Shown: positions 871 to 39,160 of the stretch, piece after piece
How positions within the stretch are numbered: position 1 is the stretch's first letter
Layout of the letters: each line of letters begins with the position of its first letter
From: Schmidtea nova
Lineage: Eukaryota
Reading direction: 5' to 3'
DNA: 64,000 nt
NCBI GenBank assembly: GCA_044892505.1
Contig: CM097883.1
Span: 164,920,001 to 164,984,000 of the forward strand
The notes under the pieces: generated by a model
Told to the model about the DNA's origin: nothing
Databases searched by the model: none
What the model saw: the letters and a program-made list of their open reading frames with translations, nothing else
Translations under genes and position numbers: made by a program

Positions 871-891
871 TTTGATGGGTAGTGACCAATT

Positions 892-1118: not shown

Positions 1119-1215
1119 GTAAGTCGAAAACAATAAAATAATATTAAAACGCAATAATTACTATCAATTAAATTAGCATCACAATATATAAGTTTTAAAC
1201 ATAAATATTTTAGTT

Positions 1216-1569: not shown

Positions 1570-1987
1570 GACAGACTATTTCCTTTATTTTCCTTTGATG
1601 ATAATAAATTGAGGGGTTTGCTTTTGTTTCTTACTCAAAATTTAGATCGAATGCGAATCAGTTGATCCGAATTTAGATTGCTTGTGGAAGTTTGAGAAGT
1701 TAATATTTTAATTATTTTTAATTTTTTGGTCAATCGATTTTTCGATTTTTTTTAGCTTTAGCTTACTATAGTTTATTACTATCTTTTATTACTTTTTTAT
1801 TTTATTACTTTTATTTAAAATAATTTAAAATGCTGCTAGCCTACTCTTCTTTATTTAAAATAAAAAAGTAACGTTATTCTCTCTATTATGTTTTTTTATG
1901 ACGGAAAAAATTCTTTTTTCAATTGTTCTGTCTTGTATTTTGGTTTACACATCTTATTTTTTGTACGCTCTTTTCTATTTTGCACAA

Positions 1988-2090
1988 TTACCGCATTAAC
2001 GGTAAAATGGTAAATATTTTTTACCGGTAAACGGTAACGTAAAAAATGTGCAATTTACCGGTAAACGGTAAAGGTTTTTACCGGTAGAGG
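1988..2090. repeat. Cluster of ACCGGTAAACGGTA motifs, resembling the subterminal repeats of a hAT-like MITE
   Basis: The motif is repeated in both orientations. No TIR pair or TSD was identified. Confidence 0.35.
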
Positions 2091-2178
2091 ATTTTGATTT
2101 AGAAATAAATAAATATTTACCATAACTTGTCTGTGAAATCACGGGATCTAGCAATTCAACGATTAGTAATATTAATTA

Positions 2179-4039: not shown

Positions 4040-4416
4040 TGCTGGTGCGTTGGTTAAATGGACAACTGAGATCCTTTGGATTTTATACGTTAGGGTGATC
4101 TCGTATCCCCGCTGACACCCATGATGTATCCCTAACTACTCATCATGTTGGTGCTGTGTCAACGTTGTGAAATGACAAGGCAGGTGAGCAACCTTGCGGC
4201 TACTATTCCCTTGTTTATTCACGGGTCCACCACTACCGATAGAAGGTTTACGTGGATTTATTTCGGTCCTTTTATGCGCTCCTTTGACTTTTCGCTAATA
4301 ACTTAATTCGGGATACCTTTAGCACAAAAATGAAATGGGTTCGAGTGACATTATTAATGTTTTCTCAGTCATTCTACAGACAATCAAATTAATTTAACTC
4401 ATTTCAAATACATTTA

Positions 4417-4977
4417 TTAATCGCTCAATAACATTGACGGATTGATCACATCTAATAGTTGTTGTTCAGTCAGTCCACTCAGTAAATCGACCTCGCTACC
4501 GAGTCTCTCTGCGTAAGCCCTTTGTTCCCGACGTCTTTTTGCTCCTAGACGGTTTCGGAACTTCGTTCTTTTTGAGCCTTCCAGCGGCGTCAATATTACT
4601 GGGGTGGGCGTCGTAGTATCTTGTTCTGTCTCAGTCTGGGTACTGGTCGTCATGGGTAGGGTTTCGACCCAGCGGTTGAACGTACTCGCCCGGATGAGAG
4701 GGCGTAATTGTTGCGTTATAAATTCCTGAGTAGAGGCTTTTAAGTAGTTATGGAGCTCTAACCTCACCGCTGCGGTCTCCCTGGATTGTTCCTCGGCGAT
4801 ACGCTCCGCTCTATACCTTGCCTGTAGGATAGATTTCACTTGTTCAGGGTTGAACCATGTGGTTTTAACACGTTGATGCACCTCGCCTAATTGGCGTAAT
4901 CGACTCTCCAACACCTTTGCGCGAGCTTTATATTCTTTGGCTTCTTTTCTGAAGTCACGCGGGGTCTTATTATTCAT
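4417..4977 (-). CDS. Family E ORF2: orphan coiled-coil protein with basic C-terminal tail (186 aa, intact)
   Basis: Homologous to ORFs at 11.7, 26.8, 28.0 and 38.0 kb (W/YFxPxxxK..LELxNxxK..FIxxQLxxLIR). Tail RNRLGAKRRREQR. TTTTAG directly precedes the ATG and AATAAA overlaps the stop. Confidence 0.7.
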   Translation of the reverse strand: MNNKTPRDFRKEAKEYKARAKVLESRLRQLGEVHQRVKTTWFNPEQVKSILQARYRAERIAEEQSRETAAVRLELHNYLKASTQEFITQQLRPLIRASTFNRWVETLPMTTSTQTETEQDTTTPTPVILTPLEGSKRTKFRNRLGAKRRREQRAYAERLGSEVDLLSGLTEQQLLDVINPSMLLSD

Positions 4978-5192
4978 CTAAAAATTAAAGAAGGGTTTTA
5001 AATTCGTAGTTTGGATTTGGGTTTGTTACGGGTCGATATTCCCCTTTTATTTCCCTTAGTTGTGGTTCTTGCCATTTCTAACTTTACCCTGCTCTCGTAT
5101 ACACCACTCAGTGTCACTCTTTCCTTTCTCATACATCATTCACACTTGCACGTACATTACGAAACTGATTCATACAACTAAGAGAAATTAGA

Positions 5193-5789
5193 TTATTTAT
5201 TTAGATGAAAATACACATGTTCAGCGCAAGTTCGACAGCTCCATTCATGGTTCTTGCATGAATTCCCTGAGATCCTGGTCGAATTGTCTATCCTCCCGCC
5301 CGGGGGGCTCCAGCATAATTGATCGTCGCATGCGAAGACCTCCCACAGTCTCGCTGGATCTCCGTTGGATTGAGTGTCCATGGCTATATTTCCGGGAGCG
5401 TGTAAGTATGGTTTTCTCTCTCCGGTAGTTCGGTTCCTGGGTTGATCAAGTAGGAGATAACCGAGGCGATAGAAGTCGGTTCCCCGTACGGATGGGTCGC
5501 TGATTATCCATTTTGGTCGCTTCGTCTCATCTTCGAATTGGATGAACCATCGGGACTTTGTTTGTTTCGGACAGGTTACTGGTGCCTGCCATTTCGGGTC
5601 GCCTTCACAGCGTATTCGCCCTCGGAAAGAGGTTATGGCCGCTCGGGCTGCGGGATCCACGTTTCTGCGCATCCATGTCCTGAGGCATCGCTCCGCCGCC
5701 CGTTGGATAGCATTCGGAGGAGGTGTAGCGTCCATGGCTTGCCACTGTTGATTCCGGTTGCCTTGTGAGCGAAGTCTTTGGCATTTCAT
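5193..5789 (-). CDS. Family E1 upstream orphan ORF (198 aa, intact) with Cys/His-rich C-terminus
   Basis: Long open frame in AT-rich DNA. TTCAG-AAA-ATG start context, AATAAA at the stop, C-terminal ..CKNHEWSCRTCAEH. Confidence 0.55.
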   Translation of the reverse strand: MKCQRLRSQGNRNQQWQAMDATPPPNAIQRAAERCLRTWMRRNVDPAARAAITSFRGRIRCEGDPKWQAPVTCPKQTKSRWFIQFEDETKRPKWIISDPSVRGTDFYRLGYLLLDQPRNRTTGERKPYLHAPGNIAMDTQSNGDPARLWEVFACDDQLCWSPPGGRIDNSTRISGNSCKNHEWSCRTCAEHVYFHLNK

Positions 5790-7133
5790 TTTCTGAAGAC
5801 GAAGGGGTAGAGATTTAATTATTAGTTGAAATCGTCAGTCAAGCATGCATTCCTTTATCAGTCTGGCATCATTCGTACATCATACGTAGAAAACATATTC
5901 AACTCACGAATTTATTACTTGATTATTTTCAGACATCCTTGACATTCAAGAAGCGTGATCTGTTTACTATATTCTTGTTACATCGAGTGTGAATTTATGT
6001 CATCATTGGTACGTTGTAGTAGTTGGCGTTCATGTTGCTGATATGGTTACTACCACACGCATTTTATGTTCTGACAATGATCTATCGCCGTGGGCCGATC
6101 GTCATACTGCTTACCACTCAGACTCATTATTATACACATTTTATCGATTATGATTATCGCTGCTACGTGAATGGTTATCTCTGCCATACCTTGAAACCTA
6201 TCTTTTCACCAGGTCGTGTATATCTGATTCAGAATAGTTTAATCATGGTGCCTATTAGGTCAAGAGGTTTCGCTGGTTTATTCTGGAGTGGAACTACTGG
6301 GTATTTGTTGGGTTACCGGGTTTCACTGCCTGTTTCTTTTACTATAACCTCGACTGTAATATGGATAGTCTCTCCCTCTGATCTCGGTTTATATCAAGCA
6401 TAGTCATGGTATATGGTTATCTATATGACTGGGATTGTCCATAGGTCCTTTACACAGTGCACTATGTGCACCCTTCCCCCTCCGCATCAGTTTAATACAT
6501 TACACTCTCGCCGCATCGGCACCTCATATGAGAATATGTTGTGCCGAAAGGCCGAGTATCCTGTCAGATCGTGAGATCTTCGGGACAAAACTTATTGATT
6601 TTTAGATATGAGGATTTAAAAGTATTAAAACAAACATCAACAATACCTTTTATTTCGTTATTGAGTTTCGTCTACAACTTTCAAATTGTCAGTTCACAAG
6701 AAATACTTGGTAAAATGACCGGTGAAAAGGGTGACCAATACTGATTTCGCTTCAGTATTTTTACTAATTTGGTGTTGTTGGTCGGCCAATCAGCATCGAT
6801 TATGTGTGTGTTTATTGCCAATTATTCCTGTTTGTCAATTTTCTCCGTGCAATTCAATTCAGTGAGTTGCTTGTTTATTCATGCGGTAATTTTCTTTTGT
6901 TATGATTTATTTTATTTTAGGTCTTCGGTGATGTCCGCCCACGTGCTGTCATCTTTTCAGATTTATCTGATTCGCATGGGTGAGTTTTTATTGTTATTGC
7001 TGTTTTGATTAATGCTTTATTACTTTTAGATTCTACCGCTTATTGGTAATTTATTTTGTTGTTGGTTTTTGTAGATTTATTTTATTGATTTCTTATTACT
7101 TTTCAGATGATGACTGATTTGCCTGGCCCAACA

Positions 7134-10809: not shown

Positions 10810-11620
10810 TATAAAATAATACTATAAAATTTCTGATGCAGGTAATTATAAATTTTGGTAAATCTTATAAAATAGAAATACCACTATAAAATTTTTAATT
10901 CAGTTATTTCTAGAATTTTGTAAATGTAAAGGTTAGTCGAAAAAATTTAAAAATTAATTTACATATGCAACCTTTCTGTAAATTCCTCACCCAAAAATAT
11001 CCTAAAACAATCAATAAAATAATTTTCGCATTTAGTCACACCCGTATCATTTGTTGGACGCATTGCTTTTTCAAATTTAGACTAAAATATCTCCCTTCTA
11101 CTTTTCGTTCGCTTGTCTTTTACCTTTTCTCCGTTTCCTTTCTAGGGTCGCAATACGCACATAAAAAGTATATTGTGTATGTACCCGTGAACTTCCTTAT
11201 TAATCCACGTTGGTAATGTACATAACAGCCGATCGCAAGCCAGCAGGTGAGCTCCTTTACAAGAACTACTCCTGACTTGTCGCATCGTTCGGGTTCTATT
11301 TGACCGATAGAAGGTCTTATTTCTCTTATTCCCTCACCCAGTCGCAGGTCTCTCCTTTGGTTGATAATATTCTTTCCATAATTTAATGACTATTGGTTAG
11401 ATTTCAGTTTTTAATATTTATCCCACAGAAGTCACATTTTATTAAACATCAAAACTACACTCATCCTTTCAAAACGTTTCATTAATTTCACTAAATGAAT
11501 ACAGTTTTATTTGTTTGCTTTAAAATCCATCGGTGGCTTCTATTACTCTCCCTTACTTTGATTCTGATTTTTGGTTACTTTTCCTAACTTCAGGGCGAGT
11601 TTCTCTTTCAACTGTTTTAT

Positions 11621-11968
11621 TCACTGCGCGTGTGACTTTCGGCGATTCCTGACTTTTGACTTCTCTGTTGTCGTCGTCGTGTTGATTGGTTGCCTTTCTA
11701 CCTCCTGTTCCGGAAACTACTTCTCCAATGTTACCGGACGAATTAAATCGGCGAGTTGCGTTACTATGAATCTCTGAGTGATCATTTTCCTACAGTTGTT
11801 GATCTTTATTCGGCTAGCTTCTAACTCATTCTTCAGATCCTCGATCGTCTGGGAGGCCCTCTGTAGCTTTTCCTTGACGACCTTCATTGCCGCGGGTGTG
11901 GAATAACTACTTTCCATCTCGAGAATTCGCCGTTTTAATTTTCCACTTATTTCTTTCTCAGTAGCCAT
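11621..11968 (-). pseudogene. Family E ORF2 copy (frameshifted near 11720)
   Basis: LEASRIKINNCRKMITQRFIVTQLADLIRPVT; the basic tail KSKVRNRRKSH is in another frame. Confidence 0.7.
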
Positions 11969-12290
11969 GAATTATCTTAATTTTAGTAGGGTTAATCTCT
12001 CACACACCTTTCCTAGCATATTCAATTAATTTATGGGGAAATTTCCCTCCCATCAGGCATCTCGATTCCCTCTTACTAAATCCTTACTCGTGACTACTCT
12101 CCTCAGGTATCCTACTCTATTTAGTCATGACCCAGTTATTTATTTAAAGTTTCCTCTCATTCACATCAACTCACTCTATCATGGGTAATGAATCACTGTC
12201 GTAATATTTTACTCATTTTATTTCACAAAACTAAGACCATTAACGAAAAAAGAGCAATTAATATTTTCACTACATCAAATTACACTGGGA

Positions 12291-12751
12291 TTAACACAGG
12301 TCGATATATTCCATACAATCGTCCTCACTGTTGAGCTCGCATACGCCTGACGGACTGTAGGGAGTCTCGGTTGACATTTCCGTTGGGGACGTGACATCGT
12401 CCCCGTGTAGAAAATGTTGAATCGTCCTGGAATCTCAGTGGGAGATTTGACGAAATATTTGGACAGATCCGAGGGGTAGATTCGATCAACGTCAATTGGC
12501 TAGGCTGAACTGCCATGCCAGGTGATAATATCAGCGCTGTCTCGATGCAGGTTGAATGGCGGAATGATCCTTTTGTCCACGAAAAAAATCTGCTGTTCCT
12601 CGACGATCTGCCTCGCCAGATCGGTCGGAATGTTTTTTAACGGAAAAGCCCATACGAGGAAGTTTTCCCTGACTTCTGGGTCCTGATATTCGGATCTTTT
12701 TTGGTTAGCATCGTCTGTTCCGCCTTGTATATGCAAGCAGATTTTCTCCAT
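12291..12751 (-). pseudogene. Family E ORF1 copy (in-frame TAG at a Trp position, plus a frameshift)
   Basis: RENFLVWAFPLK..FNLHRDSADIITWHGSSA*PIDVD..PTEIPGRFNIFYTGT..EDDCMEYIDLC matches 38661-39160. Confidence 0.7.
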
Positions 12752-14223
12752 GATCTATCTAGATGCTGATTTAAAACACCGAACTAATTTATAGATAGTT
12801 ATCGAGAACACTAACTCTGTGTCAATTTATATATGTCCCGTTACCCGGTATTGAGGGTTGTAACTATTAATCGATGGAGTTCACTCCCTCGGGTTCTCTA
12901 TGTTCCTTTCTAGTCTGTTCTCTGATTGGGGGCATCACAATACTAAGTATTTACTGTAATTTGCATCATCTAATTAATTGGGTTAACTTCACTGAGTTAT
13001 TAGTTTCAGACAGCATCGGGAATTTCGGTAAATTTAATTGGGTTTGGCGTTGGTGTCAAGTGAAGTCAATTTAATTTACATTATTCTAAAATTTCATTTA
13101 ACGTGATTTTAGCTACGAGAGTCAATGAAAATTTTTGTGAAGTGGTACAATCACTTGAAATTACTCCTCAGCGCTACTTCACTCTGAGTGGTAATGGATT
13201 CTCCTGCAATCGTCTAAGATTTTTCCAATCGAATACATTCTGACGCATACTCACTAATAGATTGGCAGATGTTAAATTTCCCCTTCAAATTCTCAAGTGG
13301 GTGGAATTCTAGTTGCATTAGTTTAATTCCCTTATCTCCTCGTAATTTCTCTCGTCTACATACTGATGGTTGGAATTTTACACGCTTTCAACGAGTTGTA
13401 CTTGAAATATCTCAATTGCCCTCTCTATCAATTTCAGCACTGTTAGTTGAATTTTACTGGATATTAGTCGGTCGGTGTTATAATTTCTATCGTGAATATG
13501 GCGAATTTAGGTTGGGAATAGGTGGATAAAATTATTATGTTTAGCTGCTAGCGTCTCTAGAATCAGACGGTACGCATTCCCTGAATTGTTACTATGGAAC
13601 TCATCATTTTGGGTATTTACTAAGCAGAATATCGGGTTACCTTTTAAAACTGGGTTTCACTTTGATACAAAAACTACGATCGTCCGATCTCTGCAGCGAT
13701 CATTTCGCCCCTTTATCATACATATTTGTCACTGGCATTAAACTGTTCATTTATCTGGATATTGAAATTAAACTTTTGGAACTCAATGACACTCGGTTTC
13801 GGCATAACTCACTACTTCCTATTTAGGAAATCATGTCCTAACATAAAAAGGCCTTCTACAGAGATATCTATCTCTGCCCCGTGCCGAAGCTCGAAACTGA
13901 GAGAGACCTCCCTGGAAAGACCACAATCTCTTGATCGCCTGGACTCTCGCATTATCTATAGTTAAAATGTAGAGAACGAAGGCATGTTTATCATAGAAAA
14001 ATGTATTTCATTTACAATGCACAAACACTTATAAATTGTTCTGTGAAAACTTGATTAGTGCGTCGTCCTCCGAGTGTTGTGATGAAATCGATGTGAAATG
14101 CGTGCTGGATGCGAAAAGTTCAATGTTGTGGCTATGAATGACCTATAACTATTGGTATAACTGACCTAATTTTGGTATAAAATGACACTAGACGTTGGTA
14201 CAAAATGACATTAATTTGACTGA

Positions 14224-14270
14224 CCTGAGCGCTTCCTTATATAGTAAAATCGACGCTCAGGCAGCCAATC
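14224..14270 (-). promoter_or_regulatory. Putative Pol II promoter: CCAAT box plus TATA (CTATATAAGG on minus) inside an 8-bp inverted repeat
   Basis: CCTGAGCG-cttccttatatagtaaaatcga-CGCTCAGG-cagCCAATcag; homologues at 31611, 34500 and 40508. Confidence 0.6.
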
Positions 14271-16491
14271 AGAATCGAGTAACCTTTTTATTGGTTAATG
14301 GCTCGATTTTTCTATTAATTTATTTTATTATCCTAGGTTTTATTCATTATTATTTTATTTTTTTTCTTATTAATTTCGTAATTATTCTTTTATTCTTTTT
14401 ATTTCCTAATTTCTGCTCAAATTTCGCATCTTTGTCATTTTTTTCTCGCTTTTTCATTTTTATTTTAGTTTTAATTGTGCTTTTCTCTTGTTAATGCTCA
14501 CTTCTTAATTAATTAATTATTATTTTATATTCCTCATTTACTTTTATCCTTTCCTGATTAATTATTTAATTTTCACTATTATTCGTTCTTGCACTAACCC
14601 AACACATTCAATAACCTTTTCTATATATAATAACACATAAAGAATTCACTTATTCCATAATGCATACACCACACCGGTTCACTCTAGTATTCTTTAGTAC
14701 CACACACCCAGAAATTCACACGAGACATTTATTCAAATACAGCTGTCTGCATTATACATCCAGGAAATTCACACGGACACTCACACCATCTTAGTATCAC
14801 CGAATCACTTATTTCAATCCAACATACAACCACACACAGTCACAACAATACAAAAGAAAAAGAAAATTACAATAATATATACATACACACCCATTTGCAA
14901 CCGCCACAACGATAGTTTTTGTCGAATCCATAAAAGTATATGAACGTACAACTCGGAATTGTTACACCTCATCTCATCAACCTATCTTAAATCATAACAT
15001 CCTATATTAGAATCTAATTCAAAACACATCATTTGCACTCAGATTATTACTTTAGAGTTTACCATTTCGCTAGGGAAATGTGTATACTTATTTTGATTTA
15101 CGGCTACAACATCTCCTGAATCTACGTCGTTCCACTTACAAATACATAACACCCAATAATAAACATTCATTGCACTACTCAACTCTAGCGGAAATCTCTA
15201 ACTTAACAACAAACCATTAGAAACCCCAGACATCTCGAAAAATCCAATTTTTCAGACAACATATACTTATATCCATTAACTTATTTTACTAATGTATCCC
15301 ATACCTATTAGTTAATTTTTTCTTGGAGGATGTCACATGGCATACCCCATAAAATGTTAGACTATTAACAACTTTATTTAACAACAAAAATTACATGAAG
15401 CTCTTATAAAATTTACAATACCGAAAAATTTACATAAAATTAAATAAATTTCTAACAAATTACTAACTAATCGTATAAAAGGTCCAACAGAAGAATAGAA
15501 ATAAATCCAACGAGATACAATGAAGGAAATTTCATAATAAATTCATAGGTAAAATCAAGAGATTTGCTTTGTGAAATATTGTAACAATTTGAGCCCTAAA
15601 AAGGTCGGAGTTATATCATTAAATTACGAAATACCAAAGTTACTCAATTTGAATTTCACTATTATATTTAGTGGAAAATTGATATTGTATGCTAAAGATT
15701 GAAGCGGCGATTGATACTCACCTGGTAGATTAACGACTTCCTAGTTTTCCTTTAAGTTAGCGTCTCAGGAAATCTGAATCACTAAGAGGAGAAAACAATA
15801 ATTGAAAATACCAAAATTTGAATATGACTTACCAGCTTGAAAATCAAAATTGAGGGAAATCTCCTTCTAAAATTAGATCCCTAAAATCGATGATTAGAAT
15901 ATAGAATTCAAAACTCCATAATATAACTAACCAATCAGAATCCGGAATTTTTTGCAGTTCGCCCATATAGATTTTTTGAATTTTTCATTTTCTATAATTG
16001 AACTTTACAATACAATATCGAAGGTAAAATATCAATATTATTCGAAAATTTCGAATAAATTTCTAAATTAAATAAATGCAAATTGGTAGAAACGACGTCG
16101 TTACCCGTTGCTAGGGCCGCAGTAGAATTTTTCAAAAACTAAAATATGAATTTCTAATAAAATCACAAATAATTTTATAAAGCAAGATAGACACTAGGTA
16201 TAGGGGTCTAAAATCTTTAGCATGAATTTTCTTAATAAAAGGAAATATATAGAAGTCGAAAAATCCTAGAATATTTTTTTTGTCAAAAATGATGATAAAA
16301 TTATAAAAATTGCAATAAAAATGACATTAAATTTATAACAAAAGAGAGACATTTGGACTAGTATACAAGCGAGTATTGTAACTAGATTTTATTTAGATCG
16401 AAATTTTCGATAGATAAATAAGGGGAGTTAGCGAAGGAATAGCTCATTTCCCAGACTGTTCTCGTAATGTTTTTCCGAATTGAGGTGCGAC

Positions 16492-17261: not shown

Positions 17262-17777
17262 ATGAACATCGAGCAAAAGATAGAAGAATTCTTTCGGTTA
17301 TCCCTCGAAAACGTGAAGCATAATCGAAAAATAGACAATTGCTTTGCCGAGCTGGAATCAAGGAAGACATCAAATTTGGATGCTCTACAAATAATGATTT
17401 CCCGAATGGAGAAATTCCGAGCTCGTTGTCGAAAAATGGAAACGACATGGTCTGACAAGAATACTGTCGATAAATTGAAAAAGCAAAATCAAATGCTTCT
17501 GCAGCAGGCCGCCGAAGACGCGTTGACGTTGCGCGCGTGCAAAGTGTCTATGCGGGAACAGGAGCTTCTGATCGAGAAGTTAAGAGCAGATAGTGGCATC
17601 ATTGCAGCCGTACTGCCGAAAATACAGCAACCCTCTCAAGAATTGTTTCCTGTCAGAGTCGAGGAGGAAACCCAGAAGCCTTTGGCTTCTGAAAAGCCTA
17701 AACGTCAGAAACCTAGTAAAGGGGTTATAGCGCGAAGAAGACGTCGTCAGGAAGCTCGCCTATTAGGTCAATTATGA
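17262..17777 (+). CDS. Divergent family E ORF2-like coiled-coil protein with Arg-rich tail (copy E4, plus orientation)
   Basis: TTTTTAG-AA-ATG start, METTWS (compare KTTWF), tail KGVIARRRRRQEAR, followed ~360 bp later by the family motif. Confidence 0.55.
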   Translation: MNIEQKIEEFFRLSLENVKHNRKIDNCFAELESRKTSNLDALQIMISRMEKFRARCRKMETTWSDKNTVDKLKKQNQMLLQQAAEDALTLRACKVSMREQELLIEKLRADSGIIAAVLPKIQQPSQELFPVRVEEETQKPLASEKPKRQKPSKGVIARRRRRQEARLLGQL

Positions 17778-18228
17778 AAGGAGTCTACCGAACTTTTTGA
17801 CTTGACACTAATTTGATCTGACTATTATCCACTCTAGTAAATCTGACTAACTGTTGCGAAAAAGTGATTTTGGTCATTAATGTTTTTATTGTGATATATA
17901 TTGGTATTTGGTGTGTATTTCCTTGTAATCATATGAAACTTTTGATTTGAGTTTTAAATTGAATTATTGTTTGACTGGAATGCGTAATGAGAATACTTGG
18001 TGAAAACGAATAACGATCGGTAGGAAAAAACCAATTGAGATAGAATAATAAATTCTAGCTGATGAAACCTTATTTCGCTAATTTCCCATAAATATCGGTA
18101 GTTGAATTATAGAAGAAGGCACAAAAATGGGCAGTAGACCCTCTATCGGTAGCCCTTGGATCCAGGAGATATTCGGTCAATCATAGTTTCGAATTTTCGA
18201 CGCTCACAGATTGTTCAACAAAATCAGC

Positions 18229-19288
18229 ATGGGACGACTTGAGGAGGCAATAAAAGCGTCACAAGAAGATACAATTCCTTCGCTTTCCAACTTCTTAAAT
18301 CGAAATTTCTTACAATGGAATCAGAATTACGCTCACTTGCAGTTTTTCAAAACATTCTCTAGATTCCTTGTCGGTCAAGAACAGCAGGGCACAAATGGAT
18401 ATGAACATATCCAGTGCTATTGGGAAGTAATCTTTATTATTATTAATTTATTAAATAAATAATAATTTGGATTATAGGTATATAAAAACATGTCAGTTTT
18501 TGCCTTTATGGCGAAAAATGGATTACGCTTTGTACAAGAGGTTGCCGGCGTTGACCGAAGACAGGCGATCGAATACGCTATAAAGGCCGATACGAGAGTC
18601 GCCGACGGAATCCAGGTTCGTATAGGAAAACCCAGTAAGTACAATGCAGATAATCAAAAACTTTGTAATTTTAAACGAGCACTGGATGCTAAAAATCTAT
18701 CAGAAGCAATAAACATTATCAAATCATCTGAGTCTTCATTTTCTTCAAAGAGAAAAAGTATTGTCGAGTCGCTAATAAACAATTTTGGAGAGGAAACTTT
18801 GCCTAATTTTTGGCTCTAGCTTCTTAATTAACTTAATTAATGTTTACGATTGGAAATCACATGTATTTATCGGAGAAAGTGGTATCAGTAAGACGAATTT
18901 TGCTTTAGCTCACTTCAAGCACCCTGTGCATTTGAAACATCTTCAGAGTCTAAATAAAATATCGGGGAATGCTGATCAATGCGATGGTTTGGTATTCGAT
19001 GATTTGTATTTTAACAAATCAAGGGTTGACGAATTTTTGTGTTTAATATACTGCGCGTATGAAAACGCGGTAAATATTAAATATAGCGTAACAACAGTTC
19101 CGAAAGGCATTCCTCGTATATTTTGTATCAACGATATCGATATGTTCTACCCAGAAACATGTACTAGTAGTATAATGGAATCGATTCCGCGAAGAATAAA
19201 GATACATAAATTTAAAGGAAATATATTTAAAACTTATATAGGTGAAAAAGTAACAAATGATATATTTGATTTTTTTATATTATTTTAG
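18229..19288 (+). pseudogene. rep: Endogenous CRESS-DNA-virus-type Rep (HUH endonuclease plus SF3 helicase) with one intron and one frameshift
   Basis: Motif II GQEQQGTNGYEHIQCY, motif III QAIEYAIK, Walker A GESGISKT, Walker B GLVFDD, motif C RIFCIN. One extra T in the T run at ~18806-18810 breaks the frame. Confidence 0.85.
18427..18477 (+). other. Putative 51-nt GT-AG intron in rep
   Basis: GTAATC..TTATAG, extremely AT-rich, contains an in-frame stop. Removal fuses ..HIQCYWE to VYKNMSVF.. in frame. Confidence 0.75.
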
Positions 19289-25770: not shown

Positions 25771-26291
25771 TGAAATATGTTTTTCTAAAATTAAGGCCCT
25801 AAATGATACCTATCTAGATTTTTTTTTTCACACCGGAAAATGGTAGTATGCCAATTTTCAGAAAAAATTATAGTGACGTTTTCGAGAAAAATTTACAGAT
25901 AAATAAATAAATATACAATTATTGTTTATTTAATAAGATAAGATACAAATTACAAATTGTCGAAAATTCGTGTACTAGAAAAAATAATGATAATATTGTT
26001 CAGCTTTCTGGTTAAAATGATAAAAATTTCTAAAATAGAAAAAAATAAATCAAAGGTGAAAAAAATGAAATATGTCAATAATCTTTCAATTACTTGTTTT
26101 TGTTAATTAAAATTCTTATCATAATTTAAAATTTATCCCCAAGTATTATTTAAATTCCTATATTTTATTAAAATCTTTTTGAAATTTTATTAAAATTGAT
26201 ACAAGAACTGAAGCTGACCAAAGATCAAAATGAATTGCTAGTGTTCGGTTGCGTGCTTGAATAATTTTGTATTTTTTTATTTTTTAATTAT

Positions 26292-27245
26292 CTAGGGTCG
26301 CATGCAACACAAAAATCTTAATGTCCGTAAGTAACCATTTGTACTTATGTTGGTTCTGCACACGACAGGCGAATGTTGATCGACAGATGAGCTTCTCTAG
26401 AAAAACTACTCCCGATTCTACCATTCTCGTGGGTTCCCTAATGACCGATAGAAGGTCTTCACACTTTATTTCACCTCATCCTTTCACAGGTCACTTATTT
26501 ATGGTGCATTCATCTTGTTCTATGGCCTACAGCTTATATATGCGTTGTCAAACGTGTCATATATGATTATATTAATTTTTATTTAATTACGATTAACACA
26601 AAATGAAAAGAAATCAACACAAAAAAATAAATTTAATTAGCAATCACTAAATTACAACACTAAAATTGTTATTGTACACTCTTGGATTCATTCATTCTAG
26701 CAATCAATTATTTTTTCTTCCTTTGTCTTTTCTGGGAGCTGATTCGTTTCCTTTTCTTAATTTAAGTTTCCGTTTCTTCCGATGTCTCGTTTGAATTTGA
26801 CTTTTGACTGATAGTTGGGTACCATTTAGCTAGAGTAATGGGCAGGATCAGTTCTTTTAGGTCATCCGCCACGAACCACTGTGTGATTTAATCCTTACAG
26901 TTATGCAGTTCTACTCTCGTGACTTCCAACTCTAGTTGCCAGTACTCGTTAACTTGTTGTTCTCGAGCCAACTTATACAATGATCTTTTTCATGATTGCG
27001 GTCGGAAAATAGATGCTCTCTAATTTGATTATTACGGCGCTTCTGGGATGTTCTGATTCAAGTCGGATTCATATACTCCCCCACCTATCTTCCAAAATTA
27101 GACTTTTGATATGGTGCCTCTATATTGGATAATATCGAGTCCGGGGATACCTCTTGCGGACTCGGCGAAATACTTTGGTGTATCCCACGTTTACTCATAA
27201 TCCACGTCGATAGGCCACTCCTGTCCTCCATGCCATCCTGACTAT
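26292..27245 (-). mobile_element. Family E copy E5, distal part (motif, decayed ORF2, 3' half of ORF1)
   Basis: Motif 26292-26457; LEVTRVELHNCKD*ITQWFVADDLKELILPIT; WHGGQEWPIDVDYE at ~27195-27235. Confidence 0.7.
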
Positions 27246-30009
27246 TATTGTGGTCCTGGATGGGTTAAAACAAAAGATAAACGCTCTAGGGATGACTCCA
27301 TCCAAGACCAAACATAAAATGCTTTCGCGACACACAAGCACCCTCGACTATTTCCCTGGATAATCGAGTTGGAAATGTGCAAGGTGTTTGAACAATGATG
27401 GGCAGGTGAGCTCTATTACTAGAACTACTCCCCATTTAAGTTCACGGGTCCATTGCTGTCGATAGAAGGACTTACGCTTTACTTTCATTTTTCTTCCTCT
27501 GAATTCATTATCTTTCATTTTAATTTTCCTGCCCCCTTCTTAACAACATCAACAGATAATTCGGATAATTGTTTATATATCTGAGCTTTAGATTCCTAAT
27601 GTTTGTCATTTATCGAGTTGTGTTAGCATTTTGTCAATATAATTTGTATTTGATTAAATTAAATTTTTAATAAATACTTTATTTTACCTACTTTACAAAA
27701 TATAAGCACAACAAAAAAATTATAACCAAACTATAAATTTTTACGAAACGATAAACTTTAGTTAACTAAATTTAACAAAATTTATTCAAAAAATTAAAAA
27801 AAACCGTCATCAAATGTAACAAAGTTTGTCGATAGATCGATTTCAGGAAGATCATCGTTATGCTGGATCATTTGCATCGCAAATTGTTTCTTCCACCGTC
27901 GTTGTCTTGCCCCCATCTTGTTCTTCTTTTTCTTTTTAATTTCGATTGTTGATGAGCTTTTCGGTACGATTGGATTTTCCATTTCCCGAACCTGCGATGG
28001 TCCTTCAGTATTTGTTCCCCCTGGACCATCCTGCTTTCTCTTCCGACCAATGTTGATAGGTAATTGGCCGGATTAACTGTTTTAACTCGCGATCTATGAA
28101 TGATGCTGTGACCGCCTTGAGGCATTTTCTTAACTCGATCTTTGTTGCCTCGAGTTCAGTTCGATATTCTTCTCCCGCTCTCTGAGATCGTTGATTTTTC
28201 ATGATTTGTATCTTCATTTGTTCAGGGCTGAACCAACTAGTTCGAAAATGAGAAATTGTGGCTTCAGCTGTTTTCAGTTTTTCGGTGGTTCTGCCAATTT
28301 CTTTCTCAAGGCTGCGAACGATTCGCCAAGCCTTGTCTAATTCGGTTTGTGGATTCGTTGGATTACTTGACATTTTCTGAAATCAATTAGTGTCATTAAT
28401 TATTGATGGATAGATTTCGATGGATTAGTATTATATTGATAGATTCTGTTTCATAATTTCCTCTGAAGATCTTTGAGGTTTATTTAACCATTATATTACA
28501 ACTACGGAGTGAAGTAAAATACATTCTATATCTCAACACTGTCGCTATGTACAGCGATCAGATAAATTCATTTATAATGTTTATTTGTACCTGTGCTATC
28601 TACAGCAATTAGGTTGATAATTTATTTACAAAGTTTTTAAGATATTACTGCCCTATATACAGGGATCAGTCTAGCAAATTAAATGTATCATATTTAAATT
28701 ATTCCGTCGGCTACTCATGAACCTTTCAGTTATTTGCGCTTGATCGGGTATCCATTGTAATAAGAAGCCTACACTGATTTGTTGTTACGCCGACCTGATG
28801 AAATCAAATGCAAAATCAAGCTCAATGTAACCACTGAGTTGGAAGTATCGATCATTATGGTCAATTTGTGCAGAATTCATCTATCATAAACTATCCTGCT
28901 ACGGTAGGAAAAATCAATGTGTCTTAAACCTATTCATTACACTGTAGCGATGTCGTATCGACGGAACTTCAAAACCATCTAATGTTATTCATATGGATAA
29001 GTGTCTGTGAAATAATGATCTCTTGGTTTCTAAAATGTGTATTTCATTCCGGAAAGTTTCGGAACATTTATTGAGCCTATATTGCTATGACCACCAAAAA
29101 TTTCTGACTCTCTCGTGTGCTTAGCCAATCTTCTGGATGTCCAATCTCGAACACGCTAGCCTTGTCTGCATTTCAATTTTATATTACAATCGATAGTTTA
29201 AGAAAATCACATTTGTGTGAAGCGGTTAATCAAATTGATGTTCAATAATTTAATAATAAAATAATAATTCTAACCGGCTGACTATACTGACCAGCAATAA
29301 TCATAAATTTCAATTATCAAAAATAAAATCTCCTACCCTCTTCATGACACTTAATACCATGAAGACGGCCTAACTGTGCGAAGTAGTTAAATCTACTCGG
29401 CGCAGTCTGCCTCCTTCCACCGATTTCACGGTGGACAGGAGCCCCCTTTAATCTTTAAACATAATATCAAATTAATTCAATAAATTTGCCTCCTTCCACC
29501 GATTACACACATAAATATTTAATGCAAAACAGAAAATCGTGATAACATATTACAAATAAACAAAATCAGCCATACCTGCTAGCTATTTTCAAATTTCTGA
29601 TTGAAATGTGTTTCAGACAAAAATTGTAAAAACATTAAAATCATTTGATTCTGCATCAGTATTTATACTGATCAGATCAACCGGTTGGCCAATCAGCGTC
29701 AAGCTGATGGTCGTTATAACAATTTATTTATTTTTGTTTTAATCAATCATTATTAAAATTTAATTAATTATTTATTGTAATTGATAAACATATATAATAT
29801 ATATTTTAATCATTAAATCTCATTTATTATCTTTTTACATCTTAATTTTGTTTTCTTATAATTTTATAATATCATTTATTTCTTTTTCTATTACTTTTAA
29901 TTCCTTTTAATGGAATTTCTTTCAAATACATTAATTTACTTTATTCGTATTTATTTTCTCATTATTATTATTTATATATTCAAATGTTGGCCAAATGGTG
30001 GACCCAACA
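27246..30009 (-). mobile_element. Family E copy E6 nested in E5
   Basis: Motif 27366-27471, ORF2 27794-28373, CCAAT at ~29690, ends CCCAACA at 30009. The left junction is approximate. Confidence 0.65.
27794..28373 (-). pseudogene. Family E ORF2 copy (one frameshift near 28000)
   Basis: TSWFSPEQMK..LEATKIELRKCLKAVTASFIDRELKQLIRPIT; tail KKKKKNKMGARQRRWKK; TTTCAG-AAA-ATG start. Confidence 0.7.
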
Positions 30010-32019
30010 CTATAGACGTGTAAACTGAAGCTCAGAGACTCCCCAGTTTGACGAAATTGAGTCTCGTGTTCCTTAAATATTTTTTGAGCTAACTCTGTAT
30101 GTATGTTCGTCTTCAACGGCATAGCCATTATTAAGTAGTTTTCAAATTTTTAATCGGTTTTTACATTACGATTGTTGGAAATGGATTGCCCCCTGAGTCG
30201 ACTACTGAGATCTCCATTGACTTTTGATTCATAATTTTCCAGAAATTTTTTATAAAATTATCATAAAATAGTATCCATAATTTACTAACGGGTTCCTATA
30301 AATTAAAATTGACTGGTTTAACCTATTCACTATTTATTAAATTTATTCTCGAATTTTCTTAATTCTATTTTTTATTTGTATCATAATACAACGAACAATA
30401 AACTCAATTTATTTTAATTATATACACTTAAGTTCAATTTGTTACATCCCCGAATAACAATTTCCCTATCTCAGTTTGATTTTATTGGCCTAGTTAAGTA
30501 CTTAATGGAAATTGCCTCAAAATTACTCCTAAACGATAGGTATTGTATATTCTCTTTTGCTGCGCTTATACTCGGACTTAATTACGACGAAAAGTTTCTC
30601 TAATTTTTATCTCCTACCACCTGTTAGTAACATTAGTAATTACACAAATGATCTCAAAAAATCCCCCTGCTCCCATTTACTCTAATAGCACCGGCTAATG
30701 GATTTCCATTAGAGAAGTTATTTTACTAATGGGTCGATTTACCTGCATTATCAGTAGAATATTTTCACATTACGTGTCGAAAAAAAATACATTAGTCTGT
30801 ATTTGATTACTCTTGCTAATGGGGTGATTTGGATTCTGCATGCTTGCTAGTTTATTTTTGCAGCCCTATTGATTACGTAATGTGTCGGAAATTTTACTGG
30901 CTGTAAAATCTCTGCTAACTGATTCCTACTGTATTTGGCATTCAAAAAATTAAACTGGAATTAAAACAAACTAAACTGGAATTGCCAATTTCGGCTTGTT
31001 ATTGTGATATTTACTTCAGGTTTCGATTATTATGCCTTTCTCATCGGATTTTACCTCTCCTACTCGGTATTTCGATATCGTCTCGGATTCACTATACTTT
31101 ATGATTATCGTGAAACTCTAGAAAAAACTATTTGTGCTACTGACATTGGAACTATTACTTTCTCCATCACTGCTAACTTTACAAAATTCTCGAAAATTAT
31201 TTAAATTAGATTTAGCCGATGGCCCCACCATCCACTCTATATTCGAGAGGCAGAATTAATGGTCGGACCACCGCGAGTTATGTGACCCGGAAGGGCGTCT
31301 CCAACATCTAAAAATGATTCTATGATATTCCGGTTTCAGACATGATTAATACAAAATAACGAAAATGAAAATTAAGACAATTATGAATTAAAGTTCCTAT
31401 TAATATAACATTTGCTTACAAGCTTGATTTCCAGATACAATGATTTTCCGAATTTTTATTCACAAGATTTATAGACTATGGGTCGCAAGTAGTTTAATGA
31501 TGTAATAAATGATGTTGATTAAACGCAAATGAAATAAGCTGTTAGGAAGTTATAGTAATATCTAAATAGGTAGTTCTAAGTAAGATGTCTCAAAAACCGT
31601 TTAGTCAACTGATTGAGCGTTCCTTATATACTACTAATTCTTTCGCTCAATCGACCAATCAGATTTTTCCTATGATTTAATTTGTCAATTTTACTAAATT
31701 ATTATTAATTTTAATTTTTCCATTATATTTTAATTTATTCTTTTTTTGGTTCGTCAAATTATTTGATTTATTTTCGCATTAATTATTTTATTTCCTAATT
31801 TATTTCTTTTTTTTGTAAATTTGTACTTGTTTACGGGTTTTACCAATTTTTATTCAATTTAAATTTCCATTTTAGATATTATTATCCTTCTACTGCATTG
31901 TAATTCATTTTTCTTTTCTTTCATTATTTTATATTTTAGTTAGATTTTCTAATTATTTTCTTATTAATTTATTGTTTTTGGATTTAGTATTTTTTTTTAT
32001 CAGTTGCGCTAACCCAACA
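30010..32019 (-). mobile_element. Family E copy E5, promoter-side part
   Basis: 5' half of ORF1 (..ESLSFSLHVY), promoter hairpin 31611-31652, end ..GCGCTAACCCAACA at 32019. Confidence 0.7.
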
Positions 32020-32199
32020 CTAGTATCATAATTAAAAGAGAAGATTTGTTACAAAAATGTGTAAAAATATCTTTTTATCTTATGCGTTCACAAAATTGAT
32101 GGGTTGTTGATAAACAAAATAACCTTGACTGTTTTTCTATAGTCTCTCATATTTCAACAACCAAACTCACAAATATTAATTAACCATATTGTTGCCAGC

Positions 32200-35030
32200 T
32201 ACAGTGTAACGTTGGTACTGCAACAAATGGGTTAACATTCGCAAAAAGTGAGCGTCCAATGAATTAAAACTATAATTGTCCGAATGTCACAGGTGTGTTC
32301 AAGGGTGACCGATAGAAGGTATTTTGTCCGTTTTTAGTCCGAAACTGGAGCTAAAATCTATACCAATTCACTGAACTTTAAAATAAACAAATTTTTATAA
32401 TTTCCTTATCGATTAATAAATAATAAAAACATCCAATTCATTGTTAATAAAAAACGCCAGGTTACTGGAAAATTTTGAAAATTGATTCTCGCTTTTCACA
32501 ATCTTCTGAGTTTCCAGTTGGATTCAGAACAAGTAAATACAAATCTGTGACTCCTTAAGAAAAATTATATGAATATCACTCACTATGATCCCAAAATTTC
32601 AAGAAAAATAAGTTAACTCATTTTGCTATACCCAGCGCGCTTATTTATTCGTCAAACAACAGCAAACAAAAAGAAAATTTTAAACATTCATCCCATCCGA
32701 TCTTCATTTTCAAGCATACATTTTGTTGGGTTACAATACTCAATTCACACAGATACGTTAAGATTTCATCGTTAAGATTTCATCATCAGTAGAACATATA
32801 TTTAATTCTTTGTTCAAATAATTACTATCAATGAAGTAATCGAAACTGATGAAGGACTACTAATTTTACCAACCTTTTCAGTTTAGCACATCTTGTTTAT
32901 ATTAATGGATTTAATTTGACGTATACTATTTATATTGTTGGCTCCTAATACAGATGTTAATCTAGTATATACCTACAGGTTCAATCTCAACTGATGTTTA
33001 GTCATTTGCCAATACCCTATATATTGTTGGCAAAAACTAAATCCCATAAGTTTGGCAGCGAGTGCAAATATAGTAAATAGCGACTAAACAAGAAGCGTAT
33101 TCAAATATTTGAGAAAAAGCACCAAGTAAACAAAAGTAATCAACAATATATAGGTGAATATTAATTAAAACAAAAATCAAAATTAAATTGAACGAATTGC
33201 AAGTAAACATGAGAAAAACACAAACAAAACAATTTAACAAAAAACTTGCAAAAGAATTAGGTGAATATAAAAAGTCAAAAATTTTATAAATAATTATCTT
33301 AATTTTAATGATGTTGGTGTGTCGCGTTTTTATATTTGAAGAATTTATATTTTTATTAGGCTAGTGTCCGCGATACAAATAAAACAATCTCTGCCCATGT
33401 GCCCGTGTATGCAGCCTTCCGTACACGTTGGTACTGCAGACGCCAGTCGAATGTAAGGGGACAGGTGAGCGTCTGCGTTAGCACTACTCTCCACTTATCA
33501 TTCTCAACAGGTTTACTTTGACCGATAGAAGGTCTTCTAATCTGGTAACTAAATATCCCTATTTTGGTCACTCATTTATGATAGTTTGATCTATCTAATG
33601 CCTACTTCAAACCATATTGCTAATTTCTCAGTCATGCCGCTAACTTTTCTTCGGAAATACATCACCTTGTATTATCATAAACTATGGAATTAAGTCAGGG
33701 ATAATGGATTTCCTGTTTGGAGAGTTTTACTATAATCACATTCGCACATGAAAGGGTTTCCTGTTTGATATTTTGTGATATTTATTTTCTTAATGGAAGA
33801 AATATAATTTATAATTATTTGTAATTTTTAGTTTTTAGACGGTTATTTGTTTAGGGAGCAATTGATTTAGATAATTTTCTTCAACTAGTTTGATATTCCT
33901 TTAAGTTGCCGCTCAAATTTTCCTATATTTAGGTGGAATTAAATTTTGTAGTTTCAATCGGATGTATTATAATTGAGGTTATTTAGACGGTTATTTAACT
34001 CAATCGGAATTTGAATAAAAGCAACACATACGCAATCGATTAAGTCTACATCTCTTTATGGAACATCAGATGCGACGACTCCTAAGTAGTCTCGACTGTT
34101 ATTACCAATATTAATCACGATTCAAAACCTTCGCTTTACTATTCTCATTAAATCGAACAACGATTTGAATTTGTATCTGCCGATGACTTAAGCTATCGGT
34201 CTCACCTGTACGGAACAGACAACTCGAGCCACGGAAGGTCAGCGACGTAGAGTACCGCCATGGCCTTAAGCTTTGTGTATTTTAACAATAACAATAAAAC
34301 ATAACGAAAATTTACGAGAGATAACAAGTCGAAATAAAAAAATTACATGTTATACCAAAGGTGTATTTTTAATACCATTCCGAAGTTATTCTAGTACACG
34401 GATCTTCTGTTGAATCACAAAAGATTTTGTTCAAGTGTTAGTAATTTTCATACAGTAATAGAGTAAATGTAAAGTTAGTAAAAAAAGTTATTGAACTGAG
34501 TTTGGCTACTCCTTTTATACTGTTTTGTGCAGCTAAACCAGCCAATCAAATAATTTCCCCCCGTAATTGGTCTAATTAATTTAATTCATTTGTCCAATTA
34601 ATATTGATGTTTTGATTAATCACATTTTTATTCTTATTCCATTTTTCTGGATTTCTTTTTATTTAATTTAAATTAATTTAATTCTGTTTACTTTTTTCTA
34701 TTCTTTGAGGGCGTTTATCTATCATAATTTTTATTTATGTTTTATTTTTTCCTTTTCGCGTTTTTGTTATTTCTTTTCATATTTTATTTCTTCTTTTGCA
34801 GGGTTTATTTTTAATACCATTTTAATTTTCTTTAATTCTTTATTTCTTTTTAATTCTTTGTTTATATTTCTGTTGTTGTGAGTTTTTTACTCCATAATTC
34901 GTTGCAAATTCAATTTTATTTATTTTCTATTATTTCTATTCTCTACTTGTCATTTCAATTTCCACTTACCCTCTTTCTGTTACCGTTTTAAGTTTTTAAT
35001 GTTTTTTTATTATTATTTTATTATTTCCCA
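32200..35030 (-). mobile_element. Family E copy or copies E7 (two motif copies, promoter, no recognisable ORF2)
   Basis: Motifs at 32209-32320 and 33425-33534; TATA hairpin and CCAAT at 34500-34546. Ends not resolved. Confidence 0.55.
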
Positions 35031-37105: not shown

Positions 37106-38027
37106 AACAGGACACATGGATAATTGATTGAGGTACGTTTAAAATTTGAGCTGAGCAGAGGTGCATCAGATATATACGTAAAAAACACATATATAACATA
37201 AACAAATTAATTGTGGAATAAAATTACAGATTAAGAGTAATTGACGTATTTTCCGGATGAAAAATATAAAAGAAAATTGTTTTAGAGAAAATTTCATAAA
37301 TCAAATTAAATTAGAAAAAAACTTTGATTTAAAAATAAAATTTTAGATCGATATAAATTATTTAAAGTTTTATTAAATCTTTATGCAAAAATAATAATTC
37401 AATTTCACTTAAAGTTGTTGAGTTTATATTTGGAGGAGTCGAGAGTTCCTTCTAGAGTGATTTGTTTTGTTGGATGCATTGCTTTTTAATTTAAACAAAA
37501 CATCTCCTTTCTATTTCTTTTCGTTCGATTGTCTTTTATCTTTTCCCCGTTCCGTTTCTAGGGTCGCAATGCGCACATAAAAACAAACTGTGTATGTACC
37601 CGTGAACTTCCTTATTAATCCACGTTGGTAATGTACATAACAGCCGATCGCAAGCCAGCAGGTGAGCTCCTTTACAAGAACTACTCCTGACTTGTCGCAT
37701 CGTTCGGGTTCTACCTGACCGATAGAAGGTCTTATTTCTCTTATTCCCTCACACATTCGCAGGTCTCTAATTTGGGTGAATTGACACTCTAATTGGTTCT
37801 ACTCTCCTTCTGTTCATGGTCTAACACTCCAGCTTTGCCTTTGGTTCAATTTATTGTTAATATCCCCTCAGCCAACTATAACACATTTCAAACTATTTAT
37901 TATACATTTATTTAATTAACACACAAAACAACATTTATTATTCATCATCACGCAAATTTCCCTTTCTCAATGTTTTTTAGCGCCAATATTGATGTAGCGT
38001 TATTCTTCTCGTCGGCGAGTCTTTGTT

Positions 38028-38387
38028 TCAGTTGTCGTCGTCTCGCGCATGTGATTTCCGACGATTCCGGGGTCTTCGCTCCTGCGATCCTTTCGTTAAT
38101 TTCGTTTCCATCTTCTCATCAGGCAATCTGGGAAACCAATTTTCGAGAGTTATTGGCCTGATCTGGTCTCGTAATTGTGTGGTCACAAAATTCTCGGTAA
38201 TCATGCGCCGACAGTTTTTCATTTCTAACCGGGTCGCTTCAAGTTCGATCCGCTGCTCTTCGATCGTCGTTCGCGCTCGTTGTAATGTCTCCTGAACTCT
38301 CTTCATCTCCGCAGGATGAAAGTAACTCTCTTCCAATTCAATTATCCGACGTTTTAACTTTCCCATCGTTTCTCGTTCTGACGTCAT
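38028..38387 (-). CDS. Family E ORF2 copy (119 aa; may be prematurely stopped)
   Basis: ESYFHPAEMK..LEATRLEMKNCRRMITENFVTTQLRDQIRPIT..RRPRNRRKSH. Confidence 0.65.
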   Translation of the reverse strand: MTSERETMGKLKRRIIELEESYFHPAEMKRVQETLQRARTTIEEQRIELEATRLEMKNCRRMITENFVTTQLRDQIRPITLENWFPRLPDEKMETKLTKGSQERRPRNRRKSHARDDDN

Positions 38388-38660
38388 GGTTTTCTTAAGG
38401 AAATTTACGATATTAGTGGAAATTTTAGTTATTGATTCGCCTTGTTAACTGAATCCTTCATCTCTACACTATTTTTACTCTCTGGTTGCCCTTGTCACTC
38501 ACCACTCTATCATACTCATTAAGGTGCACCTATTATTATTTTAATATTCTCGGTTATATATGACAATTTAGATTAGAAAATGCGCGCAACACATACAACG
38601 AAATGAACACGAAATTTGTATATTTTTAACTATAACACTTTGCACAACTGCAGATGGTAA

Positions 38661-39160
38661 TCAACACAAATCAATGAATTCGATAACATCGTCTTCATAA
38701 TCCATCTCACTAACTCCTGAGGGACTTGCAGGTGAATCGGAAGGATCATCAGCGGAAGCAGGGCCTATCACAAATCGTCCGATGCTCCAAAATTCTTCGA
38801 CTGGAATCGTTCCCGTGTAGTAAATGTTAAATCGCCCGGGAATTTCGGTGGGCGTTTCGACAAAATAATTCGGTAGATCTACTGGATACTCTTTATCCAC
38901 ATCAACTGGCCATGCTCGACTACCATGCCACGTGATAATGTCAGGGCTGTCCCTATGCAAACTGAAGGGAAATCCCTGCCCTTTTCCAAGAAAGAAATCA
39001 TATGTTCGTCGACGATCTGCTGTGCCAGATCCGTCGAAAAGTCCTTTAGCGGAAGAGCCCATATCAGAAAATTCTCCCTCGCTCCCGATATCCTTTCCCC
39101 CGATTCCTTCTCCGTCAGACTATCGTCTACCGCTTTTAGGTGAATTCTCAATCGTTACAT
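38661..39160 (-). pseudogene. Family E ORF1 copy (frameshifted)
   Basis: RENFLIWALPLK (38879 frame) and FSLHRDSPDIITWHGSRAWPVDVD..EDDVIEFIDLC (38661 frame). Confidence 0.7.

Follow-up and report, generated by a model that had tools for sequence, protein, structure and literature searches.

The usual view of long terminal repeats (LTRs) is that they are noncoding control regions, with solo LTRs acting as promoters or persisting as inert scars. The open reading frame at positions 4417..4977 (minus strand) of a 64,000-nt stretch of Schmidtea nova DNA (hereafter, the window) raises the question of whether an LTR can carry a protein gene of its own, and what such a protein would do. A first-pass annotation had assigned this frame to a six-copy orphan family, ORF2, with a coiled coil and an Arg-rich tail, and had proposed that it forms a Rev-like protein/response-element pair with an adjacent conserved motif in an invertebrate retroelement. 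We confirmed the ORF, which has 186 codons, and conclude that ORF2 is a real, selected orphan family encoded within solo LTRs several kilobases long, on the downstream side of the promoter. Gene callers would mistake its copies for host orphan genes.

A tblastn search with the 186-codon frame (copy A) revealed four relatives in the window (E 4e-12 to 1e-4), at 11621-11968 (copy B), ~26670-27030 (copy C), 28005-28373 (copy D) and 38028-38387 (copy E). They are 23-33% identical to copy A, and the alignment of the five copies has ten invariant columns, which define a conserved core at 4663..4869 (minus strand) in copy A; pairwise identity across the five cores is 31-58%. A core profile, built from the same five copies that it finds, returned nothing else in the window below an iE of 3.8. 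Five of the six claimed copies are thus related. The sixth, a 171-aa ORF at 17262..17777 (plus strand), has a similar layout of acceptor, helical body and basic tail, but its homology is not demonstrable: it gave no tblastn match, its core-profile score of -1.8 was equalled by 1661 of 2000 shuffles, and hhalign returned a probability of only 36.5. The amino acid pattern ascribed to five copies proved to be a loose consensus which no copy matches in full; its first block and its LIRPxT block each match exactly in two of the five copies, its middle block in none, and copy A matches none of the blocks.

Among the five, copy A is the only one that is clearly unbroken. Copy B has in-frame stops at 11719 and 11623, copy C (listed as 26700) several stops plus a frame break, copy D (27794) a tail in a different frame from the core, and copy E (38028) a stop just past the tail. 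The proteins are small (120-190 aa, at most one Cys), and all carry a basic patch with 3-6 R and 3-7 K per 16 residues; in copy A, this patch lies at 4525..4572 (minus strand; residues 136-151, 6 R and 3 K). Such density is uncommon, given that at least 7 K/R within 12 residues occurred in 6 of 126 stop-free stretches (>=60 aa, positions 1-41000), four of which fall in ORF2 copies, one being an overlapping frame of the same tail. While every basic tail quoted in the first-pass annotation is present, not all are C-terminal ends, since 36 further acidic/hydrophobic residues follow in copy A and ~33 in copy D. Nor does "Arg-rich" describe copies C and D, whose tails contain more Lys than Arg (7 K, 3-4 R in 16).

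A protein-coding function would be expected to leave its mark on substitution patterns, and in all ten ORF2 pairs, compared over a core of 59-65 codons, pS was 0.78-0.96 and pN 0.29-0.50, unlike the dN/dS near 1 that would have spoken against the earlier proposal; with dS saturated, we give no dN/dS ratio. A protein-guided alignment can bias pS and pN, and we therefore used an ungapped comparison of copies B and E as a check: 49 of 83 residues are identical in the ORF frame, which has no stops, as against 25/82 and 21/82 in the other two frames, both with stops. Saturated synonymous sites combined with a much lower pN indicate that the ORF2 protein was, as judged from sequence comparison, under purifying selection in the past, and that these LTR protein genes are old enough for silent sites to have saturated. 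Overall, ORF2 is very probably a functional LTR-borne protein.

Which part of the protein was conserved bears on what it does. The invariant residues are mostly charged positions in the helix and in the block that follows it, not in the tail, and the tails vary widely in both sequence and K/R ratio. This would suit a nuclear factor that interferes with the host, for example with small-RNA or chromatin silencing, the helix binding a host protein and the basic patch serving only as a localization signal. We consider this rather doubtful: no host-like domain or partner is identifiable, and copies B and E, also the closest pair in the core, have kept an identical basic peptide of eight residues through silent changes, with five of the eight codons differing.

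Structure models bore out the predicted combination of a coiled-coil-like long helix with a basic patch. Copy A was modelled (pLDDT 69, pTM 0.24) with helices at residues 6-41 and 44-105, a disordered T/P linker, a basic helix from residue 138 (138-167) and an acidic/hydrophobic C-terminal end; copy E was modelled with one helix of 47 residues and two lesser helices (mean pLDDT 74, pTM 0.42). The long helix is thus predicted to span 47-62 residues, with uneven heptad hydrophobicity (best register 23/34). We predict that ORF2 is probably a nucleic-acid binder.

The orphan status of ORF2 held up in both sequence and fold searches. A single ORF2 sequence yielded 316 candidate homologs and a four-copy alignment 1161, none of which was confirmed, nor were any of 258 pattern matches in viral contigs. 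The best Atlas matches (0.89 and 0.78) are leads only, and PDB sequences gave a best E of 0.25. One match among 1.84 billion representatives (E 8.5e-4), to a repetitive bacterial-type surface protein, was rejected as chance. With the structural model as the query, none of 24 viral folds matched at E 0.001, the PDB gave one match with an E of 6, and a wide fold search retrieved nothing beyond generic coiled coils, with Z no higher than 5.7. The searched collections hold few invertebrate repeats, which makes these blanks weak evidence. The family was likewise absent from the titles and abstract openings of the literature searched.

A long helix with positive net charge might also be expected of a structural protein, be it a small fusogen, part of a Gag or matrix protein, or a coiled coil of the LINE ORF1 kind. 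Homology to a structural Gag had been named as an outcome that would overturn the regulatory reading, and none was found: seven translations lack a CCHC knuckle, no gag or capsid family matched at E up to 1, and there is no membrane segment (maximal 19-residue hydropathy 0.89). Given further that the structural matches are generic coiled coils and that ORF2 has its own start and stop inside the LTR, a structural role is highly improbable. Elsewhere in the window, a gag-like remnant with CCHC knuckles was seen by eye at 40-1010 (minus strand).

The surroundings of the ORF2 copies are highly regular. Copy A lies in a unit of 3094 bp (LTR A, 4040..7133, minus strand; TGTTGG...CCAGCA), which is inserted into a Helitron helicase ORF and has the 4-bp target duplication CTGC on both sides. 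Contigs from four sequencing runs of one study represent the empty site, joining 4034-4038 to 7133-7148, and there are PIF1 matches on the flank downstream of the unit. The disrupted Helitron itself is a decayed Rep/PIF1 helicase at 2650-4035 and 7140-8320 (minus strand). Copy B sits in LTR B (11052..14604, minus strand; 3553 bp, target duplication AATG), and copy C in LTR C (26242..32019, minus strand; target duplication CTAG). The latter is interrupted by LTR D (27246..30009, minus strand; 2764 bp, target duplication ATAG), which carries copy D as a core at 28005-28373 with its tail reaching to 27794. LTR E (37468..40640, minus strand) retains its 3′ end, while a tandem array takes the place of its 5′ end.

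ORF2-bearing LTRs span 2.8-3.6 kb. LTRs A to D all begin with TGTTGGG; A, B and C end with CA, and D with TA. Target duplications of 4 bp flank all four LTRs for which both ends are available, with each 4-mer having a frequency of only 0.002-0.007 in the window. From these features, the units are best read as solo LTRs of an LTR retrotransposon; the retroelement origin suggested earlier is thereby borne out and, through the ends, target duplications and empty-site joints, pinned to solo LTRs. The 4-bp duplications and TGTT ends presumably place the lineage in the gypsy group; the window contains no pol. Since no internal gag-pol region of the lineage is present in the window either, we infer the strand and the R/U5 borders of the LTRs from sequence features.

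The same TG...CA ends and 4-bp duplications would fit equally well if the units were complete nonautonomous DNA elements, akin to Ginger-like elements, that are moved by a gypsy-type integrase and have ORF2 as cargo. Indeed, neither gag or pol nor a primer-binding site or polypurine tract was found beside any LTR end in the window, and the ends are more conserved than the interior. Nevertheless, the terminal inverted repeats are just ~6-10 bp long, and a conserved RNA fold close to the 3′ end, together with a promoter whose distance from the 5′ end is fixed, points to an RNA intermediate, which makes a DNA element very unlikely.

Returning to the solo LTRs, they share a common order: ~400 nt of U3-like sequence, a promoter, an upstream ORF, ORF2, an AT-rich spacer, the conserved motif and the LTR end, such that the 2.4-3.2 kb downstream of the promoter carry protein genes plus an RNA fold. 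In LTR A, a CCAAT and a TATA-like box occupy 6756..6791 (minus strand), 342 nt from the 5′ end. This arrangement recurs in six units, i.e., LTRs A to E and a short LTR lacking ORF2 (LTR G, 33312..34547, minus strand; promoter to 3′ end), with the CCAAT located 315-359 nt from the 5′ end in all four LTRs that have that end, and pointing toward the ORFs. We regard the boxes as a putative Pol II promoter within the LTR. Accessory ORFs in or at LTRs have precedents in MMTV sag, HIV nef and foamy virus Tas, all of which are situated in U3 or ahead of it, before the main promoter; in contrast, the ORFs of the ORF2 units lie 1.3-2.3 kb downstream of the CCAAT/TATA promoter. As a separate observation, two stretches of LTR A (6522-6635 and 6750-7091), corresponding to the promoter region and an element ~200 nt after it, reach a contig depth of 1,200-4,400 and have many more genomic copies than the ORFs.

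ORF2 is not the only candidate gene in these LTRs. A second orphan family, ORF1, lies upstream of ORF2 in LTRs B (~12290-12760), C (27074-27241 and ~30010-30220, i.e., on both sides of LTR D) and E (~38661-39170), always on the minus strand; its copies are up to 69% identical and all broken. ORF1 of LTR B gave 29 candidate homologs, none confirmed, no family assignment, and a best PDB E of 1.4. The corresponding region of LTR A (5193..5789, minus strand) is probably broken and unrelated to ORF1 of B, C and E. No reverse transcriptase, integrase or other Pfam family was found in 15 translations upstream of five ORFs.

With a promoter in the same LTR, ORF2 might be its DNA-binding transcriptional regulator, analogous to foamy virus Tas or bZIP factors, dimerizing through the helix, holding DNA with the basic helix and activating through the acidic/hydrophobic end. 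The basic tract is indeed modelled as a helix, copies A and D have acidic/hydrophobic ends, the tails of A, B and D fit an N-x7-R/K/X spacing, and that of D even fits the full N-x7-R-x9-hydrophobe spacing. The full spacing, however, also arises by chance in the cores of B and the 17262 ORF, no bZIP or other DNA-binding family matched at E up to 1, and the ORF2 helix precedes the basic region, separated from it by a 30-residue linker, whereas in bZIP proteins the helix follows the basic tract. This makes a promoter regulator quite unlikely.

How would ORF2 be expressed? A splice-acceptor-like site (4978..4984, minus strand) directly precedes the ATG of copy A. TT[CT]AG within 4 nt of the ATG was seen at four of six starts examined (ORF2 of A and D, the 17262 ORF and the upstream ORF of LTR A, but neither B nor E), as against 28 of 1409 ATGs, a pattern that was picked after the sites had been seen; under a stricter acceptor rule, two of the six starts passed. 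Counting ORF2-type starts only, three of five (A, D and 17262) have the acceptor-like site. Furthermore, every copy has an AATAAA ahead of the motif, so the 3′ end of the ORF2 message may precede the motif.

In contrast to the basic patch, a nuclear export signal did not stand out. Export-signal patterns in ORF2 were no commoner than in shuffled sequences, 208-457 of 500 of which also matched (42-91% by chance), and strict-class signals were absent from copy A and from the core and tail of D, with none shared by the copies. The conserved block that closes the core is spaced like an export signal in B, C and E, yet it includes a proline, and the model places a turn there, leading into a helix.

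The motif itself is present in the window in eight full copies and one partial copy (21130-21359). Five of the full copies are in the ORF2-bearing LTRs A (4109..4262), B (11175-11330), C (26315-26471), D (27332-27485) and E (37590-37745), all on the minus strand. The others are in LTR G (33393-33548), in an LTR-like end termed J (32097..32335; motif 32167-32335, minus strand), which has no ORF2 in the 980 nt upstream, and, as a divergent copy, at 18123..18274 (plus strand), 362 nt after the 17262 ORF. A model built from the eight full copies predicts three parts: a small hairpin whose 7-nt loop is conserved; a long stem, interrupted by a conserved internal loop and capped by a short hairpin, the loop of which is of the GNRA type in four copies; and a further hairpin on the 3′ side. 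Twelve of 20 pairs show two-sided change, and 89% of cells are paired, a value reached in none of 500 shuffles and compared to 29-44% in slid controls, with the proviso that the structure was derived from the alignment on which it was tested and that two copies are near-identical. Single-copy folding z-scores were mixed, ranging from -3.1 to +1.0. G-U pairs and the GNRA loops favor the strand in sense orientation to the ORFs, and an alternative interpretation as an antisense mini-intron was dropped, given that the pairing covaries on the sense strand. The CUAU loop could pair with the RUAG strand of the internal loop.

We found no counterpart of the motif among known RNAs. In a search of positions 1-41000 at E up to 5, none of the motif copies matched Rfam 15, and a known ribozyme was rejected, there being neither an Rfam match nor, by eye, a hammerhead core or an HDV-type first stem. 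Outside the window, none of 120 metagenome matches listed had the third block, and among 240 loci listed from two pattern scans none was better than E 0.077, as expected by chance. At 80% likeness, the summed contig depth was 155,000-185,000 for the motif versus 375-780 for ORF2, and exact-match contigs stood at ~22-32. Contig depth does not equal copy number, and short conserved motifs also draw in families that are more distant, so we say only that the motif appears far more abundant genome-wide than ORF2. The motif is a real structured RNA on the ORF2 strand, without an Rfam match.

Do ORF2 and the motif belong together? They lie on the same strand in fixed adjacency in five LTRs and in the 17262 unit, and B and E, which share the basic octapeptide, also have near-identical motifs, though they are the closest pair in the core as well. 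The earlier description of ORF2 as directly upstream stands in that the two adjoin on one strand, though they are separated by 171-325 nt in the five copies and by the 362 nt noted above for 17262. Against a cognate pair, two of the eight full motif copies have no ORF2 within 1 kb upstream, the contig depth of the motif far exceeds that of ORF2, and the motif cores of B and E are 98% identical while their ORF2 cores are 58% identical. Near-identical motifs alongside saturated ORF2 silent sites point to LTR ends having been exchanged between subfamilies. Moreover, the motif occupies the R/U5 end of the LTR, which is where any LTR element keeps cis signals; this, and the lack of an export signal above chance, also speaks against a Rev-like pairing. 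All these observations could be reconciled with a protein that acts in trans, so that the pairing is neither shown nor excluded by them. A Rev-like pairing of ORF2 with the motif is plausible, yet unlikely enough that we treat it as a candidate only. The occurrence of the motif also without ORF2, its start 165-262 nt from the LTR end, again suits ORF2 as a host-interference factor, with the motif as a separate R/U5 signal for packaging, priming or 3′-end formation, a possibility that we hold to be just as doubtful as the protein side of that reading.

Comparison with known systems helps to place ORF2. Rev-like proteins are described as joining NLS, NES, RNA-binding and oligomerization domains (PMC10746203), with targets in env or near/in U3 and an NES preceding the Arg-rich motif in EIAV Rev only (PMC5568270); in EIAV Rev, a coiled coil occupies the center and an Arg-rich motif/NLS the C-terminus (PMC4299382), which makes it the nearest architectural parallel to ORF2. 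As with Rev, Rex, Rec and Rem, ORF2 is small, has a long central helix and a C-terminal basic patch (as described for EIAV Rev; PMC4299382), is probably made from a spliced message and shares its element with a structured RNA. It differs in showing no sequence or fold similarity that we could find (sequence conservation among Rev-like proteins is low, and a plain helix is all that the model offers), in being encoded within the LTR without an established export signal, in having the motif toward the extreme 3′ side of the LTR instead of in env or near/in U3 (PMC5568270), and in belonging to an element that is not a demonstrated retrovirus. Thus, ORF2 may work like Rev but cannot be filed as one.

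Invertebrate LTR retrotransposons do provide a precedent for an export protein. CERV of the C. elegans element Cer1 is reported as a novel protein made from a spliced mRNA and needed for export of genomic RNA (PMC10309623). Unlike the small, Cys-poor ORF2 encoded in the LTR, CERV is a large three-domain protein that has a Cys loop. MDG1/412-group gypsy elements are described as having two accessory ORFs under selection between the start site and gag, sORF1 and sORF2, which are separated by a poly(A) site (bioRxiv 10.1101/2025.03.14.642691). Two accessory ORFs under selection would be a shared feature with the ORF2-bearing LTRs; as described there, however, they precede gag on an unspliced RNA, and sORF2 is a fusogen with a transmembrane segment, whereas ORF2 lies in the LTR, has no hydrophobic segment and follows an acceptor-like site. 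Multi-kilobase LTRs and accessory ORFs are further reminiscent of the giant gypsy elements Ogre and Burro, which have long LTRs (1.9-6.5 kb in Ogre) or accessory ORFs (PMC6431247). Their extra ORFs are described there as part of the internal region or polyprotein, and the likeness is one of description, not of sequence.

Taken together, we tentatively favor ORF2 as an accessory regulator encoded in the LTR of a gypsy-like retrotransposon lineage, a reading to which we give somewhat less than even weight. Transcription would start ~400 nt into the LTR, and splicing, in cis or in trans, to the acceptor just before the ATG would generate the ORF2 mRNA. The protein would self-associate via its long helix, enter the nucleus through its basic patch and bind the element's own RNA with the same patch, shifting that RNA away from spliced accessory transcripts and toward the intact genomic form through export or protection from splicing, in parallel to Rev-like proteins and CERV. 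That ORF2 acts on the element's own RNA is possible, again at somewhat less than even confidence. The motif would be the best candidate site; it may instead be a general R/U5 cis signal, and its being the binding site of ORF2 is for now an improbable guess.

A bolder reading, which we consider unlikely, is that an invertebrate gypsy-like lineage independently evolved the strategy of complex retroviruses and packed it wholly into the LTR, with the motif as a response element or a new processing RNA. If true, the LTR would combine its promoter with accessory genes expressed by splicing, among them one for a Rev-like protein, and with a new RNA family common to thousands of LTRs, and solo LTRs would be self-contained units that express a regulator acting in trans on the whole family. 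Nuclear exit of unspliced RNA in simple LTR retrotransposons is a largely open question, which an unbroken 186-aa protein and a 150-nt RNA supported by covariation make directly testable.

The window contains several other features. A repeat family starting TGTTGGGC occurs at 8337-9725, 36278-37467 and 62597-64000 (plus strand), with copies about 70-76% alike; it lies on the strand opposite to the ORF2 LTRs, and its 3′ ends were not found. The tandem array that replaces the 5′ end of LTR E (40640-61630) has a period of ~4122 nt, and each unit carries a 137-aa RING-finger ORF with an acidic tail (Pfam zf-RING_2, E 1.7e-7); an integrase-like fragment was seen by eye at ~41000-41280. Upstream of the 17262 ORF, 16751-17181 (plus strand) contains short direct repeats and a hairpin with 36-nt arms at 16896-16978. 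Two helicase-like ORF fragments face each other at 18490-19290 (plus strand) and 20480-20900 (minus strand), both with Walker A-type motifs (by eye, of the small DNA virus Rep/NS type), and between them lies a perfect 171-nt inverted repeat (19470-19640/20059-20229). A near-perfect 200-nt palindrome at 10614-10819 is probably a MITE-like hairpin, with weak microRNA-model matches below threshold. Finally, fragments at 23400-25100 (minus strand) resemble, by eye, a hAT-type transposase.
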